Positions 4,786 to 33,868 of a stretch of 35,338 nucleotides of DNA are shown here, in pieces. Position 1 is the first letter of the stretch, and every line of letters starts with the position of its first letter. The stretch lies in the UHGV virus genome UHGV-0289455. One strand, given 5' to 3'. The position numbers and the translations under genes were made by a program. The notes under the pieces are model-generated. The model had not been told where the DNA came from. It ran no database searches and saw only the letters and a list, made by a program, of their open reading frames with translations. The stretch is from a virus.

Positions 4786-4804
4786 CGTATTGGGGTTATA
4801 AAAT

Positions 4805-7800
4805 TCAGCTAATCGTGATGCCTGCAGTGGCTTTCTTCATCACAACAACCAGCAAATCGCTGATACTTGCTGTGGGATACCAGCCATTTACCCACCATGC
4901 TGATACAGAAAACTCCAGCGTCATGTGGCCGCGACCAGCAGGCATATCAATAACACCACTGTAAACCAGCGTATTATCCATCGCGGTACGGTTATAAATT
5001 TCAGCACCGTTTTTCTTCACTATCAGGCGGCATGACGAATAAGTATCGCTGTTCTCCCGCTCATGTCTGGCACCGCTGAAAGCCACCGCCGGAATAACAA
5101 TCTGCCGGTTAAACGGCTGATCGTCATAAACCCTGACGGTAATGGTTCCTGATGGCCAACGCTTCGGTGCACGGGAGTCACGAGGGAAAGCCTTACCCAC
5201 TGTTTTAACGAGATCGCCTTCAATCTGGTTTGCAGACAGTTTCCCTCTGATGACACAGTTCTCGTTAATGGTGACATTATTGAGCGTGCCGGTATTCGCC
5301 GTGATGGCTCCACTGATATCCGCATTGCGGGCTGTCAGCCTGCCATCCGGCGTCAGGGAAAACGTCGGAGGATTGCCGGATGACGTGATGCTCACCGCAA
5401 ACAGTCGCTTCAGGAACACGTCGTTCATGAACAGCTGATTCCCCTGCGCCACAAACAGCGGCGTGGTGTTGCCGTTCTCCGGGGTAATCATCGCAATGCG
5501 ATCGGCCTGCAGCAGAATGTTACTCAGGGTCTGACCATCAACATCCTCAATCCCCACGCCAATCCCGGCCACATAGGGAATACCGTTTTTTGTTTTCTGC
5601 ACCTTCAGCATATACATGGCATTCAGCTCATTGCGCGTGTCTGACTGAACCCGCTGGATTTGCTGTATGGTCACGGCCTGGTCACCCAGTTTTTTATCCG
5701 TGGTCGAGGTAATTTCACTCCCTTTTTTATCCACGTACTGGCGGACCTGTGCTATCTGTCGGGCGTTTTCTGACTGCCCCTGGCTGACAGTCTGTGAGAT
5801 TTCACTGCTAACCCGGTCCACTTTCTGGCTCATCTGCGCGATGGCCAGTGTCTGGTCCTCATTCTTTTTCGCAACCAGCTGCGTGAGGCTGTTTTCCGCC
5901 TCCCCGATTTTCCGGGTCACTTCTGCGATATCCGTGTCCATCCGCTGACGGATGTCTTCTTCCAGTTGCGTGACCTCCGTACGCAGCGCTGAAGCATCAA
6001 TGCGCTCTTTCAGTGCCTGACCCAGAAGCGTCTCATCTATCAGCCCCCGGAAAATTTCCAGATACCCTTCACCATCATTGCTGGGCTGCCCGCTGGCTTC
6101 CACAAAAGCAGATTTTCCCACCAGGTTGACGCTTCGCACGTAAAACCAGAAATCCGTCCCCGGCTTAATCCGGCTCCCCTGGACAGTCCACTGACTGCCG
6201 GACCCCAGATAACGGGCAGATTTTTCCACCTGTGCCGTGTTCGTGATGCGTTTTTCTGAGAACCAGAATTCAAACTGTATCGTCGGATCATACACCGCAA
6301 GACGCGGGACCGCCGTTATCTGAAAATACCCCGGCGTCAGCTCAATGGTGGCGGGTTTTGCAGGTGCGTTAATCCGGAAGGTGGTGGTGGCAGGTTCACC
6401 CTGCTGGCCATAACTGTTTATCGCCCGCACCGTCAGGGTGTATTCCCCCAGTGGCAGGCCACTGAAACGGTGCTCCGTGTCTGCGGTGATGGCGGTGGTC
6501 ACCAGTCTGGCATCCGTTCCCTTACCACTGGTCAGGCGCAGACTGAAGCGCACGCCCTTCACCACCCGCGGCGTGTCCCATTTAGCCTGCGCCAGATACT
6601 GGCCGTCAGCTGCGCTCACCTCCACCGTCAGGTGCTGTACTGCCGGTGGGATGACGCTGTTCAGGGAGCCTGACTGCGGCTCAAAGCGGGCACCGTTATC
6701 CACGATGGCTTCTTTTTCCGGTACGTGCTGCACCGCCGTGATGGCAAAGGTGCCGTCCGTGTTTTCCCGGATGGAGACACAGCGGAACAGGCGACGGCGC
6801 AGTGACGGCAGGGAGAGTCCCCACACACCGTATGTCTCCACACCATCCGGCAGGGTGCTGACCTGTATCCGGTCAGGCGCGGGGTGTGCGGTGATGGCCA
6901 CGCTCGCCGGCTTACCGCTGCCGTTAATCAGATTAACAGTGGCCGTGCCGGTCTCCGGCAGTGTCACCTCCCGGTCCAGCGTCAGGATACGGCTGGCGGC
7001 ATCGATGGACAGGACACGTCCGCCGGTCATGGTCCCGGCATAGTCGTTATCACAGATTTCAATGATGTCACCGGGTGTGTGCCGCAGCCCCTGAGACCCG
7101 AGCGTGAAATCCACCGTCTGCGTTTCCAGCAGTTCGGTCTTTATCACCCACAGCCCGGCACGGTGGGCCTGACCGCGGCTGGTACAGCCGAACGCGTCCA
7201 TCTTCAGCAGGTTGCGTCCGTAGCGCAGTATGGCTTCCGGGTCTTCCACCAGTTCCGTGGAGGTCTGCCAGCCGTTCTGCGGGTCGGTGTAATTCACCTC
7301 CACCGCCGTGTGCCGGTCCTTCAGGGCACTGAAGCTGTAGCGGAACCCCACGCCGTTATCATCCACCACCACATCGCTGTTGGTGTACGGCCACACCACA
7401 TCCGACGGGCGGTCCTGAACGAACGTCAGCGTCTGACCGTTCCATACCGGCATACAGCGCATCGCAGAGCAGAAATCACTGAGAACGTCCCACGCCTTAC
7501 GCTGTTGTGCCAGGTACGCATTAAAGGTCATCCGCGGCTCGGTCCCCCCGAAACCATCCGGGACCGTCTGGTCGCAGTACTGCCCGATGGCATACAGCGC
7601 CCACTTGTCCACATCCGCCGCCCCCAGACGTTTTCCCATGCCGTAGCGCGGGTGAGTCAGCATGTCCCACAGGCACCAGGCCGGGTTGTTGCTGTATGCC
7701 GGTTTCAGACTGCCGTCCCAGATACCACTGTACGTGCGTTTTTCCGGGTCATAGTTTGACGGCACCTGGATGATGCGACCGCGGATATGGTAGTTCACCG

Positions 7801-29181: not shown

Positions 29182-31158
29182 TCATGCCGCGATGTCCGCG
29201 TTGTTCACTTCCACCTTCACACTGTCAATCAGCAGCGTATATGTCGCCGCCTTTGATATGCCTGTCAGTTGCAGTTTGTCCGCCGCCCCTGATGCCGGAG
29301 ATTTCACCAGTGTGAACGGCGTCCCCCGTTTCTCATCCAGTACCGGCGTCACCTGAATGCTGTTGTTTCCGGCAAACTCAAAAGCCAGTGTGTGCCATCC
29401 GTTATCAAAGACCCCGAACGTTTCCAGCTTCGCATTCGGCTTCTTGTGGTGCATCGCGTTCAGGTTCGTCGCATCCGTCTGCAGAAAGAAGGACATCAGC
29501 ATGTCGTTGCCTTCCTCTGCCAGCGTCACTCCCTCCGGCAGGGACGACAACTGCCAGTAAATGCCCAGGGCAAACTGATTCGGCACCAGTGAACCCGGCA
29601 ACTTAAACCGTACGCTCACACGTCCCCCCTTCTTCAGTAACTCCACTCCCTGTCCGGCTGCATCATGCTCCAGAAACCAGATGTGGTTTTCCGGTTTATT
29701 CAGTTGCAGGGCCTTACCTCCCGTAGCCCCCGCATCACTGACCACCGCTTCAGCAATGTTTTTGTTAACATTGTCTCCGCTCGCCGGTTTGTGATAATAG
29801 CGCCAGCCCTGTGATGCCAGGTCTTCGCCGGACGCCAGCAGACTCATCAGGGTTCGGTTACTGACCGGGGCTTCCGGCTCTCTCTCCGTACCTTCACCGG
29901 AAGGTCCGGTGGGCTTCACCGTATCAGGCTGTTTTCCGGTAATGAATTCAGCGTTTCTCCCGGCATGCACAAGAATCGCCGTTGCCAGACGGTCGGAAAT
30001 AATCCCACGACGTGCCCATGATCCAAAATGCGTTTTACGGTCAGCCGTCGTCCAGGTTTTGGCGTCCGTTCGACCACCGGCTCCGTAATACCCAATATCC
30101 GCAACATCCGGATCTTCTGACGGCTCGTTGGTACCCACATTTCGCCCGTTTTCATCCGTCATAAACGGCACAAAGAAGATTTTTTTTGCGGATTTCGTCT
30201 TGTATGCACCATACACCGCATCGTATTGCGAAGAATAAGTCTGCTTCCAGTAGTAGGTCGTGTCGCCACAAATCCAGGGAACCGATGACGGAGAGCCCCC
30301 GAGACACTGACCTCCGAATTCCGACAGGTCAGAACGATATTTTTCCACCATGGAATCAAACAGCCCCGGCTGGGTGGCGTATGCACCCTGTTTCAAATCA
30401 AACTCGCCCTGCATCCAGACCACTGCAAGCAGAATATTTTTAGGGTTGGCCTTCAGTGCGGCCTGAGTACGGGTAAGCAGGTCCTTGTACAGTGGCTTAT
30501 CTACACCCCAGCGTGCCGAGGTCTCGCTTGCGCCGGTGGATTCGCTGAAGGTACCTTCATCGCCCGCCAAAAATGCAGAACCACCACGGCAGCACGGAAC
30601 CAGAAGAATACCGGCATTCGCCGGAATAAACGGCAACAATTTCTTCGCGATATGTAATCCCTGCCCCACGCATCCATACTGAGCTGCACTGGCTTTCGGG
30701 TGTGAAAACTTACTCAAATCCTGAACATCATGCAGGCAGTGGTCCGCAGGAATAATGTCATTGTAGTTACAGAACGCACCACCCGGCGTGACAGTGCTGC
30801 GACGCGCCAGCTGTTTAATACGCGGGTCCGGACGGTCATATGTCTCCGGCAGCGGAAGCCCTTCACCATACGCCATACCGTTTGACTGCCCGGCCAGGGC
30901 AACAACAAAGTAATACTCCGGGTTGCTGGTGGTGCTGATAACTGCGCCTTCTCCATCCGACGGCTTCACCACCACAGGTGTGGTGACATCACCTTCCGCC
31001 GCAATGGCCTGCATCAGGGTATAAGGCGTGATGGCCACCGGACTGCCAAATGGCTGCCACCCCTCCTTCAGTTTTTGTGTCAGTCGTTTCGCAAGGTCTG
31101 ACGGCGATGCCGCCCTGACAACATCATAGTGTTTAAATGCCATGGTTCTTTCCACCAT
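29182..31158 (-). CDS. nanS-p: prophage-encoded sialate O-acetylesterase NanS-p (DUF1737 N-domain, SGNH/SASA esterase domain, C-terminal carbohydrate-binding region)
   Basis: 658 aa. N-terminus MAFKHYDVVRAASPSDLAKRLTQKLKEGWQPFGSPVA is the DUF1737 signature, followed by VVALAGQSNGMAYGEG (SGNH GQSN motif). Sits between the Q/tRNA region and the holin, as in Stx-phage-like prophages. Confidence 0.85.
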   Translation of the reverse strand: MVERTMAFKHYDVVRAASPSDLAKRLTQKLKEGWQPFGSPVAITPYTLMQAIAAEGDVTTPVVVKPSDGEGAVISTTSNPEYYFVVALAGQSNGMAYGEGLPLPETYDRPDPRIKQLARRSTVTPGGAFCNYNDIIPADHCLHDVQDLSKFSHPKASAAQYGCVGQGLHIAKKLLPFIPANAGILLVPCCRGGSAFLAGDEGTFSESTGASETSARWGVDKPLYKDLLTRTQAALKANPKNILLAVVWMQGEFDLKQGAYATQPGLFDSMVEKYRSDLSEFGGQCLGGSPSSVPWICGDTTYYWKQTYSSQYDAVYGAYKTKSAKKIFFVPFMTDENGRNVGTNEPSEDPDVADIGYYGAGGRTDAKTWTTADRKTHFGSWARRGIISDRLATAILVHAGRNAEFITGKQPDTVKPTGPSGEGTEREPEAPVSNRTLMSLLASGEDLASQGWRYYHKPASGDNVNKNIAEAVVSDAGATGGKALQLNKPENHIWFLEHDAAGQGVELLKKGGRVSVRFKLPGSLVPNQFALGIYWQLSSLPEGVTLAEEGNDMLMSFFLQTDATNLNAMHHKKPNAKLETFGVFDNGWHTLAFEFAGNNSIQVTPVLDEKRGTPFTLVKSPASGAADKLQLTGISKAATYTLLIDSVKVEVNNADIAA

Positions 31159-31403
31159 CTGAAAAATAATTCTTTAAAATACCTGACATGTAATACAGAA
31201 AAAACACAAAACCATACCTTAAATAAAAACCTCATCATCAAGCAGATATGCATGGATAAACTACAAGACGAGATATAAACCACCCTGCATTTAAATAAAC
31301 AATAAACAACATCAGAAAAATAATTCTGCTCTATGGTTTACATTCAAAAATATCATTTATACTTTTCAGAACATCACCAGCAAGACATAAACAAGGAGAC
31401 TAA

Positions 31404-31739
31404 ATGAAGTGGATTGTGATTGATACAGTTATCCAACCATCATGCGGAATATCTTTTTCAGTCATATGGAGTAAAATAAAATTAATAATCTGGTATCAAT
31501 CGGATGCTTTCTTACCTCCTGAAAGTATATTTACACTGACTCACACAGGTATCATGCTCAATAACAAAGTGCTACCTGTAACCATTTACAACGTAGCACC
31601 ATTCAATAAAACATTCTGGAATTTAATCAAAAACAGCCAGGAATGTCCTACAAATACAGATAACGTATTGAATGAATGCTTTAATAACCGTTGCACTCTG
31701 CAAATATGTCCTTATGGACTAAAACAACAAAGTCCATAA
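31404..31739 (+). CDS. hypothetical protein encoded on an AT-rich moron, opposite to the late operon
   Basis: 111-aa ORF with a canonical AAGGAG Shine-Dalgarno 7 nt upstream; the surrounding segment (about 31160-31760) is conspicuously AT-rich; GC-rich hairpin at 31781-31803 downstream. Cysteine-rich C-terminal part. Confidence 0.5.
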
Positions 31740-32186
31740 GGAGTTTACTCACATCTGACAAAATCAATATAAACAGCCCCTCCGGAGAGGGGCTGGAGAG
31801 TGGCGCTATGTGCCATTGCATGGTGCCGGGTGCCTCCCGGTGAATTCAGTACCAGCACCTGAATCCGCGATTATCCCATATACCTACTCGCTGATTGCCC
31901 CTCCGCACAGGGGGATTCACCATGCCAGTTTCTTTTAACAAACTCCCCGCAAACCAGACAACAGTCAACCGCCTGAATTGTGAAGTATTTAAAAATTTCT
32001 CCCGCTAACTGATACCCGGCTAACAGTCTGGCGTTTTCTTTTTCAGCAACGGGAAAGCAACAACCACCACACCCGCCACCAGCACACCGTCAGCCAGCAC
32101 TGACATTATCCGGCTGCTGCAATGCCACTCACAAAAACAGTAAGCAATCACTTTTTACCGTAACAAGTGATAATCCAGATATGTAT

Positions 32187-32540
32187 CTACCCCAGATGAG
32201 TAATCCGAAGTTCATCCATACCACAGGTACTGGCTATTCTGTTGTACTCCTGAACAAGAGCAAATAATTCTGAATTAGCAACCATGAACTCATCGCAAAC
32301 CCTCTGTATAGCATCACTATTCAGAATAATAACGTCTCTTCCCGAAAGACGATCAGGAGTACAGAACAAAACTGTCAAACGGCTGAAGGCCTTTGCTCGT
32401 CCTGCATTGACTATATCAATACGCTGCCTAAGGATGAAACACCCCGACGCCTCATCAATATTCACTCTACCCACACCATATGAATGATAAATATTTAATG
32501 CTGAAAAAACCATTAGACCGTATAACAAACACTCAATCAA
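32187..32540 (-). CDS. hypothetical protein in the stx-equivalent slot (weak call)
   Basis: 117-aa ORF starting with TTG (first ATG at codon 10), no convincing Shine-Dalgarno; low GC. Confidence 0.25.
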   Translation of the reverse strand: MIECLLYGLMVFSALNIYHSYGVGRVNIDEASGCFILRQRIDIVNAGRAKAFSRLTVLFCTPDRLSGRDVIILNSDAIQRVCDEFMVANSELFALVQEYNRIASTCGMDELRITHLG

Positions 32541-32653
32541 TACTTAACAGAACTTTTATTTTTGACAAACATAAAATATTTTCAACAATATCCTGAGCCA
32601 GGTATATTTCAGTATAAGGCTCTGCCGGAAGGAATCTGGAAGAATGAATATAG

Positions 32654-32727
32654 CGCGCTGTACTGGATTCGAACCAGTGACCGATTGCTTAGAAGGCAAT
32701 TGCTCTGTCCGGCTGAGCTAACAACGC
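32654..32727 (-). tRNA. tRNA-Arg (anticodon UCU)
   Basis: Minus strand GCGTTGTTAGCTCAGCCGGACAGAGCAATTGCCTTCTAAGCAATCGGTCACTGGTTCGAATCCAGTACAGCGCG: cloverleaf with a GTTCGAATC T-loop and a TCT anticodon loop; CCA not encoded. Confidence 0.85.
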
Positions 32728-32827
32728 TGAATACCGATAATGGACCGCCATCGGGGACCCGCCCCCGCACCAACAACCCTGTTATCGTGTCGTCTGCTCT
32801 TCCTGATAAGCTAATGGCGGTTTGTGA

Positions 32828-32903
32828 TGGTGGCCCTTGCTGGATTTGAACCAGCGACCTGGCGATTATGAGTCGCTCGCTCTCACCACTGAGCTAAAGG
32901 GCC
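32828..32903 (-). tRNA. tRNA with CAU anticodon (tRNA-Ile2/Met type, ileZ-like of Stx-phage tRNA clusters)
   Basis: Minus strand GGCCCTTTAGCTCAGTGGTGAGAGCGAGCGACTCATAATCGCCAGGTCGCTGGTTCAAATCCAGCAAGGGCCACCA, with encoded CCA; resembles E. coli ileX as recalled. Confidence 0.85.
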
Positions 32904-32942
32904 GGGAGCAGAATAATAACGGTCCGTAATTAATTCCGCAAT

Positions 32943-32964
32943 AAAAAACCCGCTCGGCGGCGGG
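32943..32964 (-). terminator. tR'-like rho-independent terminator downstream of pR'
   Basis: Minus strand: stem cccgc/gcggg followed by TTTTTTATT. Confidence 0.6.
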
Positions 32965-33013
32965 TTGTAGAAACTCTTCTAACGTCAGGCATAAAAAGCC
33001 CATTGTTATGACG

Positions 33014-33041
33014 AATTTACCACAGATTCCGGAAAAATCAA
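33014..33041 (-). promoter_or_regulatory. late promoter pR' (TTGATT, 16-bp spacer, TAAATT) immediately after Q
   Basis: Minus strand ...TTGATTtttccggaatctgtggTAAATT...; lambda pR' has TTGACT/TAAATT as I recall. Lies 0-30 nt downstream of the Q stop. Confidence 0.6.
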
Positions 33042-33046
33042 CCTTG

Positions 33047-33868
33047 TTACCTAGTTACCTTTTTTAACTGCCGCTCAGCCCATGCTTCTTCAATATCAAA
33101 CCGGGTCACCAGCGCATCATAGAATTTCTTAACTGTTTTTTCCCATGACGCGCGTGTTATCTGGTTTGTCACCTCGCATATAGCATTAAATGCCTCCGTT
33201 GATGGTAGTCTTTCATAGCCACGACCACCACAACGCTGGCAGTCTCTGATAACAGGCATACCACGTTTTACCGACTCTTCACGATGAATGGCGACACCAC
33301 GCCCACGGCAATCCTTACAGGCGGTGGAAACCTCACCCTTTCCGCCACACTCCGGACAGGCAACTTTTACCACCTCCCTGACTTTTTTCCATTCTTCCCA
33401 GTAAGACGAATACACACCTTTCGTACACTTTGCCCATACCGGCGGCTTACCATCCGGATACTGGACCTTGTTTGTAAAAACTACGCTTTCAATAAATTTT
33501 TCCCCATAGCAACAAGGGCACTGCTTTTTACTCGCTGCGCTGCGGGCATAATCCTCAAAAGCGTACGAAGCCATAATGCGCATCACTACCGGTTTTATTT
33601 CTGCCGGAAGTTTTCTCAACGCCGCCACACGATCGCACCGACTGAGTGCATAATCTGCCAGTAATTCTGTTGCCCGCGCCCTGTCATTCATACTGATGCC
33701 CATTTTCCCCAGGAACGCAGAAAAACCCATCTCAGCCCGATTCTGTGTCATGCCCTGCGCGGCCATCACATCAGTGATACTCAGCGCATCTTTTGACGTT
33801 GAGGCCGATGCATCGGTCAGGCCAGGGGATTTTGGGGAGTAGTATTTCGGTAAATCTTCCAGTTTCAT
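33047..33868 (-). CDS. Q: late antiterminator Q (zinc-finger Q family, QuuQ-like)
   Basis: 273 aa with four CxxC pairs (CPCC, CPEC...CKDC, CQRC); located immediately upstream of pR' and the tRNAs. Confidence 0.7.
   Translation of the reverse strand: MKLEDLPKYYSPKSPGLTDASASTSKDALSITDVMAAQGMTQNRAEMGFSAFLGKMGISMNDRARATELLADYALSRCDRVAALRKLPAEIKPVVMRIMASYAFEDYARSAASKKQCPCCYGEKFIESVVFTNKVQYPDGKPPVWAKCTKGVYSSYWEEWKKVREVVKVACPECGGKGEVSTACKDCRGRGVAIHREESVKRGMPVIRDCQRCGGRGYERLPSTEAFNAICEVTNQITRASWEKTVKKFYDALVTRFDIEEAWAERQLKKVTR

Follow-up and report, generated by a model that had tools for sequence, protein, structure and literature searches.

The question raised by this locus is what a markedly AT-rich segment, carrying a single open reading frame directed against the late operon, contributes to a lambda-like prophage and to its host. 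The window, that is the whole stretch of 35,338 nt that was analysed, is identical (0 mismatches) to positions 252288-287625, reverse strand, of the chromosome of Escherichia coli strain E1 (NZ_CM145183.1), and spans the Q-to-tail-fibre portion of the prophage. An earlier note made from the sequence alone had proposed an AT-rich segment of roughly 600 bp upstream of nanS-p, and computation of windowed GC upheld this: the 601-bp segment 31160-31760 has a GC content of 32.1% as compared to a mean of 52.8% for the 35-kb DNA (sd 5.5% over 601-bp windows; z = -3.8), and the 601-bp stretch of lowest GC in the entire window starts at position 31162. The edges of this island are sharp, with GC falling from 0.50 to 0.28 at approximately 31150 and returning to 0.50 at approximately 31750. 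Codon composition follows the same trend, GC at third codon positions being 0.31 in the 31404-31739 reading frame against 0.59 in nanS-p. The AT-rich DNA upstream of the reading frame (31159-31403) would be a target for silencing or thermoregulation, probably by H-NS. The features of the island and its surroundings are as follows.

33868-33047, minus strand: Q antiterminator
32966-32947, minus strand: tR'-like terminator hairpin with T-run, approximately 80 nt downstream of Q and upstream of the tRNA genes
32903-32828, minus strand: tRNA gene, called tRNA-Met (anticodon CAT) by ARAGORN and tRNA-Ile in RefSeq
32727-32653, minus strand: second tRNA gene
32151-32020, minus strand: reading frame of 43 residues encoding a DUF3927 protein (phrog_1470, E = 8e-13)
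31765..31954, minus strand: STnc100 prophage sRNA gene (Rfam RF02076, full-length match, 132.4 bits against a gathering threshold of 47, E = 4e-29)
31774..31795, minus strand: GC-rich hairpin with a 9-bp stem and 4-nt loop, the intrinsic terminator of STnc100 (terminator scan, Rfam alignment and fold)
31404..31739, plus strand: iraL coding sequence, ATG start, 111 codons plus stop, encoding an RssB anti-adaptor of the IraM/IraL/RssC family
31393-31398, plus strand: Shine-Dalgarno sequence AAGGAG, 5 nt before the ATG
31371..31403, plus strand: iraL 5'UTR, its start inferred at 31371 by alignment of the CFT073 5'RACE sequence ACATCACCAGCAAGGCATAAACAAGGAAACCA
31358..31363, plus strand: candidate -10 element TATACT, ending 7 nt before the inferred start (sequence reading; identical in CFT073)
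31337..31342, plus strand: candidate -35 element TTTACA, 5/6 matches to TTGACA (sequence reading; identical in CFT073)
31159..31403, no strand: AT-rich divergent intergenic region between nanS-p (minus) and iraL (plus), GC 0.287, which houses the iraL promoter and 5'UTR
29182..31158, minus strand: nanS-p-type SASA sialate O-acetylesterase gene, divergent from iraL (Pfam DUF1737, SASA and DUF6645)

The plus-strand reading frame was recovered with an ATG start, 111 residues and a translation exactly as first quoted, yet the view that its product lacks any recognisable motif did not survive the homology and structure search that had been suggested for it, which identified the protein as IraL, a member of the curated IraM family. 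NCBIfam NF007393 ('anti-adapter protein IraM') was matched with 162.4 bits, the curated cut-off being 121, with residues 1-110 aligning to model positions 1-113/114 and hence over the full length, while residues 1-78 matched the crystallised IraM fragment of PDB 8twd with E = 2e-32. A local Pfam scan of the product returned no match and PF11183 is the precomputed label on all homologues, so that family membership is settled by the NF007393 match together with PF11183 on the homologues. RefSeq likewise labels the gene 'anti-adapter protein IraM', PHROGs assigns the product to phrog_4407, listed as 'unknown function', and PADLOC gave no significant match to the product (best E = 0.05, to an unrelated restriction-enzyme model).

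The likeness to IraL of the uropathogenic E. coli strain CFT073 (formerly ycgW, c1429; Hryckowian et al. 2014, mBio 5:e01043-14) extends over protein, coding sequence, promoter and 3' flank: 110 of the 111 residues are identical, the sole difference being A65 here for V65, as are 332 of 336 nt of the coding sequence (98.8%), 129 of 133 nt of the region from -100 to +33 (97.0%) and all of the 161 nt 3' of the gene. The product shares the NF007393 family, the beta-barrel core and the four tail cysteines plus CPYG motif with IraM of E. coli K-12 (b1160; solved with RssB as PDB 8TWD), albeit at just 63% amino acid identity, ungapped over 107 residues, and 69.6% nucleotide identity. As iraL was defined by at least 95% coding sequence and at least 96% promoter identity, limits that do not overlap with iraM (Hryckowian et al. 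2014, PMC4045071), values of 98.8% and 97.0% upstream to CFT073 versus 69.6% and 43% to K-12 iraM make the gene iraL and not iraM. Nothing was found to contradict this identification, and the gene, product, target, promoter and prophage-island location have been known since their publication in 2014. Of 5426 complete E. coli genomes, 1446 contain the segment, nearly always at 95% identity or more, as do four phage records; far from being absent or disrupted in all relatives, the reading frame is carried undisrupted, at no less than 95% identity, by more than 1400 complete genomes.

The upstream region of iraL (31159-31403), 97% identical to that of CFT073 iraL, is unrelated to that of K-12 iraM, with identity at the background level of only 41-43%. 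Homology to K-12 iraM starts at the start codon and stops near the stop codon, which indicates that iraL and iraM represent a common coding module placed under unrelated control regions and that their regulation differs. This agrees with the roles ascribed to them, IraM responding to Mg2+ starvation and IraL being active in log phase and growth (literature including PMC4045071). A PhoP box, which would point to control of the kind acting on IraM, is present only in part: the half-site GGTTTA is perfect at 31335-31340 and the second half-site, AAAAAT, is mismatched. The two genes also differ in location: K-12 iraM lies beside e14 and not in the slot between Q and nanS-p, and no STnc100 follows it. 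In strain MG1655 the RefSeq end of e14 is 1211412, just before icdC, and iraM occupies 1211680-1212003, thus placing iraM just outside the annotated e14 prophage; the IraL paper places it 'on the e14 prophage' (PMC4045071). The product of ycgX, the neighbour of iraM in K-12, is a DUF1398 protein, and the potB prophage of CFT073 likewise encodes a member of that family.

The 5' end of CFT073 iraL mRNA was mapped by 5'RACE in log-phase cells to ACATCACCAGCAAGGCATAAACAAGGAAACCA, and this start is preceded by sigma-70-like -10 and -35 elements (Hryckowian et al. 2014, PMC4045071). Alignment of that sequence to the window sets the start 7 nt after TATACT, and the tttaca...tatact stretch first proposed as a promoter thereby occupies, just upstream of 31371, the position required of the characterised iraL promoter. 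At 15 nt the spacer between the two elements is suboptimal, and the candidate promoter was missing from the output of a generic scan because that scan requires a spacer of 16-18 nt. Mismatches to CFT073 fall at 31385, 31398 and 31401 within the 32-nt 5'RACE stretch and at 31370 just upstream of it. The substitution at 31398 converts AAGGAA of CFT073 to AAGGAG, the Shine-Dalgarno sequence noted earlier, which is present as described, 5 nt ahead of the ATG. Owing to this single substitution the Shine-Dalgarno sequence is stronger than that of CFT073, translation might be higher than that of the characterised allele, and the expression level is possibly different from that in CFT073. The 5'UTR does not fold into structure beyond chance (z = +0.35), which leaves a leader-based switch without support. 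The mRNA of CFT073 iraL rises by 1.6 log2 at 37 °C as compared to 23 °C, and IraL is increased in a fur mutant of CFT073. Deletion of iraL and its single-copy complementation in CFT073 altered the level and stability of RpoS (PMC4045071). The expectation that the gene would be expressed in the lysogen is supported through these 5'RACE and deletion/complementation results, and would carry over to this prophage by virtue of a promoter that is 97% and a protein that is 99% identical.

The GC-rich hairpin proposed downstream of the reading frame is real, but its assignment had to be revised, as it is the minus-strand terminator of STnc100 and not a typical terminator for iraL. On the minus strand the hairpin is followed by the T-tract TTTATATTGATTTT, whereas on the plus strand the stem runs into GAGAGTGG with no U-tract, and a terminator scan of 30900-33100 found no plus-strand terminator. 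STnc100 is convergent with iraL, the 3' end of the sRNA lying 25 nt from the iraL stop codon, and in the plus-strand direction the hairpin starts 35 nt past the stop codon. The hairpin may cause pausing or stabilisation of iraL transcripts, in which case these would be antisense to the 3' end of STnc100. Any read-through from iraL would give an antisense overlap with the sRNA. STnc100 is a known prophage sRNA related to PasD; in Stx2 phages it is found just downstream of stx2.

The reading of the AT-rich segment as a discrete cargo module (moron) in the late region of a lambdoid prophage, acquired horizontally, was in turn supported by sequence comparison. Phage PhiR5_1 retains nanS-p and the STnc100 region and is missing the AT-rich module, so that the module represents an indel between the start of nanS-p and the STnc100 terminator. 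It thus exhibits a discrete insertion, a deviant composition (GC 32% versus 53%) and a promoter of its own; a terminator of its own is present only in part, as the only hairpin belongs to the convergent sRNA. The orientation opposite to the late operon also proved correct, Q, the tRNA genes, nanS-p, holin and lysozyme all being on the minus strand. Past the cargo slot, nanS-p (RefSeq label 'SASA family carbohydrate esterase') comes first among the large genes of the late operon, followed by holin and lysozyme. The hairpin at 32947-32966 lies in the expected place of tR' and of the short pR' leader RNA; a sub-threshold match to the Trp leader at 32940-33046 (25.5 bits against 41) was taken as chance. 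The tRNA at 32828-32903 presumably is of the ileZ type with a lysidine-modified CAT anticodon, as in the tRNA clusters of Stx phages. A reading frame of 117 residues at 32187-32540 on the minus strand is probably non-coding, having no Pfam or NCBIfam match and being absent from the RefSeq annotation. The DUF3927 protein (WP_000562553.1) is the same protein in the same place in CFT073, and its family, phrog_1470, is TciB-like (cell-division inhibition or colicin resistance) and is placed in the moron category.

The potB prophage of CFT073 presents the same order of Q, tRNA genes, DUF3927 gene, iraL on the opposite strand, an esterase remnant and holin. The two prophages differ in that the esterase gene of CFT073 is truncated while nanS-p is intact here, and in that CFT073 carries an IS200 beside Q, unlike the prophage in the window. 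Stx2a and Stx2c phages carry a gene of the family in the same slot ahead of nanS-p/yjhS and in the same opposite orientation, for example in LC567829.1, where it is annotated 'iraM', and it is followed by the same STnc100-type hairpin as here. The representative feature is:

LC567829.1 (Stx2_EH2201, Stx2a), 4794-5117, plus strand: Stx2-phage paralogue, between stx2B and nanS-p/yjhS

This gene encodes a protein of 107 residues with 76% identity to IraL and 65% to K-12 IraM, values which make it a third IraM paralogue, and it lies directly downstream of stx2AB with a diverged AT-rich upstream region. No functional study of the Stx2-phage paralogue was found in the literature. Among the Stx2c records listed, most have no annotated feature beneath the match to the paralogue.

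The fold of the protein is consistent with its assignment. An AF2 model has a confident core at residues 1-78 (pLDDT 80-96) that forms a beta-barrel, and the top Foldseek match of the model is 8twd_A (E = 6.5e-9, TM 0.90 on target, rmsd 1.3 Å over 78 columns), with PmrD next. Of the residues through which IraM contacts RssB in 8TWD, 10 of 14 are identical in IraL of this prophage, the changes being T13S, L75I, H63N and I64V, and the cluster I contacts, which are directed at the 4-5-5 face of the receiver, are identical to IraM at all five positions. IraL of CFT073 binds RssB, as determined by two-hybrid and pulldown analysis, and raises the log-phase level and stability of RpoS; by two-hybrid it binds the N-terminal receiver domain of RssB only, in contrast to IraM, which binds both domains (PMC4045071). 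The modelled beta-barrel core would thus dock on RssB roughly as IraM does in 8TWD, although, given the N-terminal-only versus two-domain binding, that docking mode may not carry over exactly. IraL of this lysogen would be expected to act like its CFT073 counterpart. In the proposed sequence of events its own sigma-70-type promoter would drive iraL in the lysogen from a start at about 31371, the 111-residue product would bind the response-regulator-like adaptor RssB, and RssB so bound would be unable to deliver the stress sigma factor RpoS to the ClpXP protease, such that RpoS would build up during growth and the general stress regulon would be raised. During lytic growth, Q-antiterminated late transcription running antisense through iraL would turn the gene off. 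We consider it very probable that iraL is a prophage moron with its own sigma-70-type promoter, the product of which would block RssB and thereby allow RpoS to accumulate in the lysogen.

Other explanations for the locus were weighed against this reading. PmrD (PDB 4HN7, 2JSO and 2RQX), the connector between PhoPQ and PmrAB, has the same unusual small beta-barrel (TM 0.70-0.73) and, like the IraL family, is a small protein that binds the receiver domain of a response regulator; it differs in its length of 81-88 residues in the solved structures, in being without the four-cysteine tail, and in its target, which is PmrA and not RssB. It could accordingly be argued that the 111-residue protein is a diverged connector of the IraM/PmrD fold which serves another response regulator, much as PmrD protects phospho-PmrA, stabilisation of RpoS not being its real role, and the match to 4hn7 (TM 0.73), the difference already existing between IraL and IraM in the RssB domains bound, and the four of 14 RssB contacts that differ from IraM would all fit such a role. 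The protein is, however, one conservative change (A65V) away from the CFT073 protein that binds RssB and stabilises RpoS, and its cluster I contacts are as in IraM at five of five positions, while identity to PmrD is only 14-20% (Foldseek) and no PmrD match was obtained in NCBIfam or Pfam, so that IraL is not a member of the PmrD family; a connector function of this kind is highly improbable. Even less credence is given to an anti-phage or superinfection-exclusion moron, or a toxin, whose similarity to IraM would be incidental. Such cargo would be at home in a typical moron slot, next to a small DUF3927/TciB-like reading frame of the PHROG 'moron' category and with phrog_4407 listed as of unknown function, but it is opposed by the lack of any significant PADLOC match (best E 0.05), by the full-length match above cut-off to the curated IraM family, and by the direct experimental function of the near-identical CFT073 protein.

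Somewhat more room, albeit still little, is allowed for a silent or decaying remnant, for instance through complete silencing of the AT-rich DNA by H-NS in the lysogen. An upstream region of 29% GC and the suboptimal 15-nt spacing of the -35 and -10 elements are in keeping with silencing, and K-12 iraM is reported to be repressed by H-NS. These points are countered by a reading frame that has stayed intact at 95% identity or more in over 1400 complete genomes, by a promoter that is 97% identical to one active in log-phase CFT073, and by a Shine-Dalgarno sequence stronger than that of CFT073.

The C-terminal part of IraL had been described as cysteine-rich, which is correct, and its four cysteines are conserved nearly throughout the family. 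The tail comprises residues 79-111 and displays the pattern C81-P-x9-C92-x4-C97-x4-C102-P-Y-G, residues 81-105 being encoded by 31644-31718. An exhaustive profile search yielded approximately 45 representatives of the family that are full-length and share no more than 50% identity; long repetitive proteins that matched only profile positions ~2-46, in several stretches, were set aside as repeat-driven noise. In the alignment of 44 representatives, with identities down to 20-40%, the four tail cysteines are kept in 42-43, and C81, C92, C97, C102 and P103 are all within the seven most conserved positions, thereby outranking several of the RssB-contact residues. The pattern is carried by Escherichia, Salmonella, Citrobacter, Enterobacter, Klebsiella and Raoultella, and ten representatives that were looked up came from Salmonella, Citrobacter, Enterobacter, Klebsiella, Raoultella, Intestinirhabdus and Dryocola or were without a source name. 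The tail of IraM was left out of the construct crystallised for 8TWD, and the structural paper terms it less conserved and flexible; no mention of the tail cysteines or of zinc binding by IraM was found in the RssB/IraM literature searched. The pLDDT of the tail in the AF2 model, built from a 33-sequence alignment, is ~50-56, and AF2 models no metals. It is conceivable, although on balance doubtful, that the cysteine tail represents a functional module, either a Zn(Cys)4 knuckle or a switch responsive to redox state or metals, which would govern the stability or activity of the anti-adaptor.

Carried by roughly one in four complete E. coli genomes, iraL illustrates in textbook fashion how a prophage moron rewires a core regulator of its host, here through the proteolysis of RpoS. 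Genes of the IraM family have a fixed place among the cargo of lambdoid phages, just upstream of nanS-p, and in Stx2 phages this place is directly downstream of stx2AB; this constancy and the convergence of iraL and STnc100, which almost abut, may be of interest to those who study RpoS control or Stx phages. Across this family of the Enterobacteriaceae the four tail cysteines hardly vary, and they lie in the only part of the protein without an assigned role; if they do form a switch, the tail would constitute a post-translational input into RpoS control.
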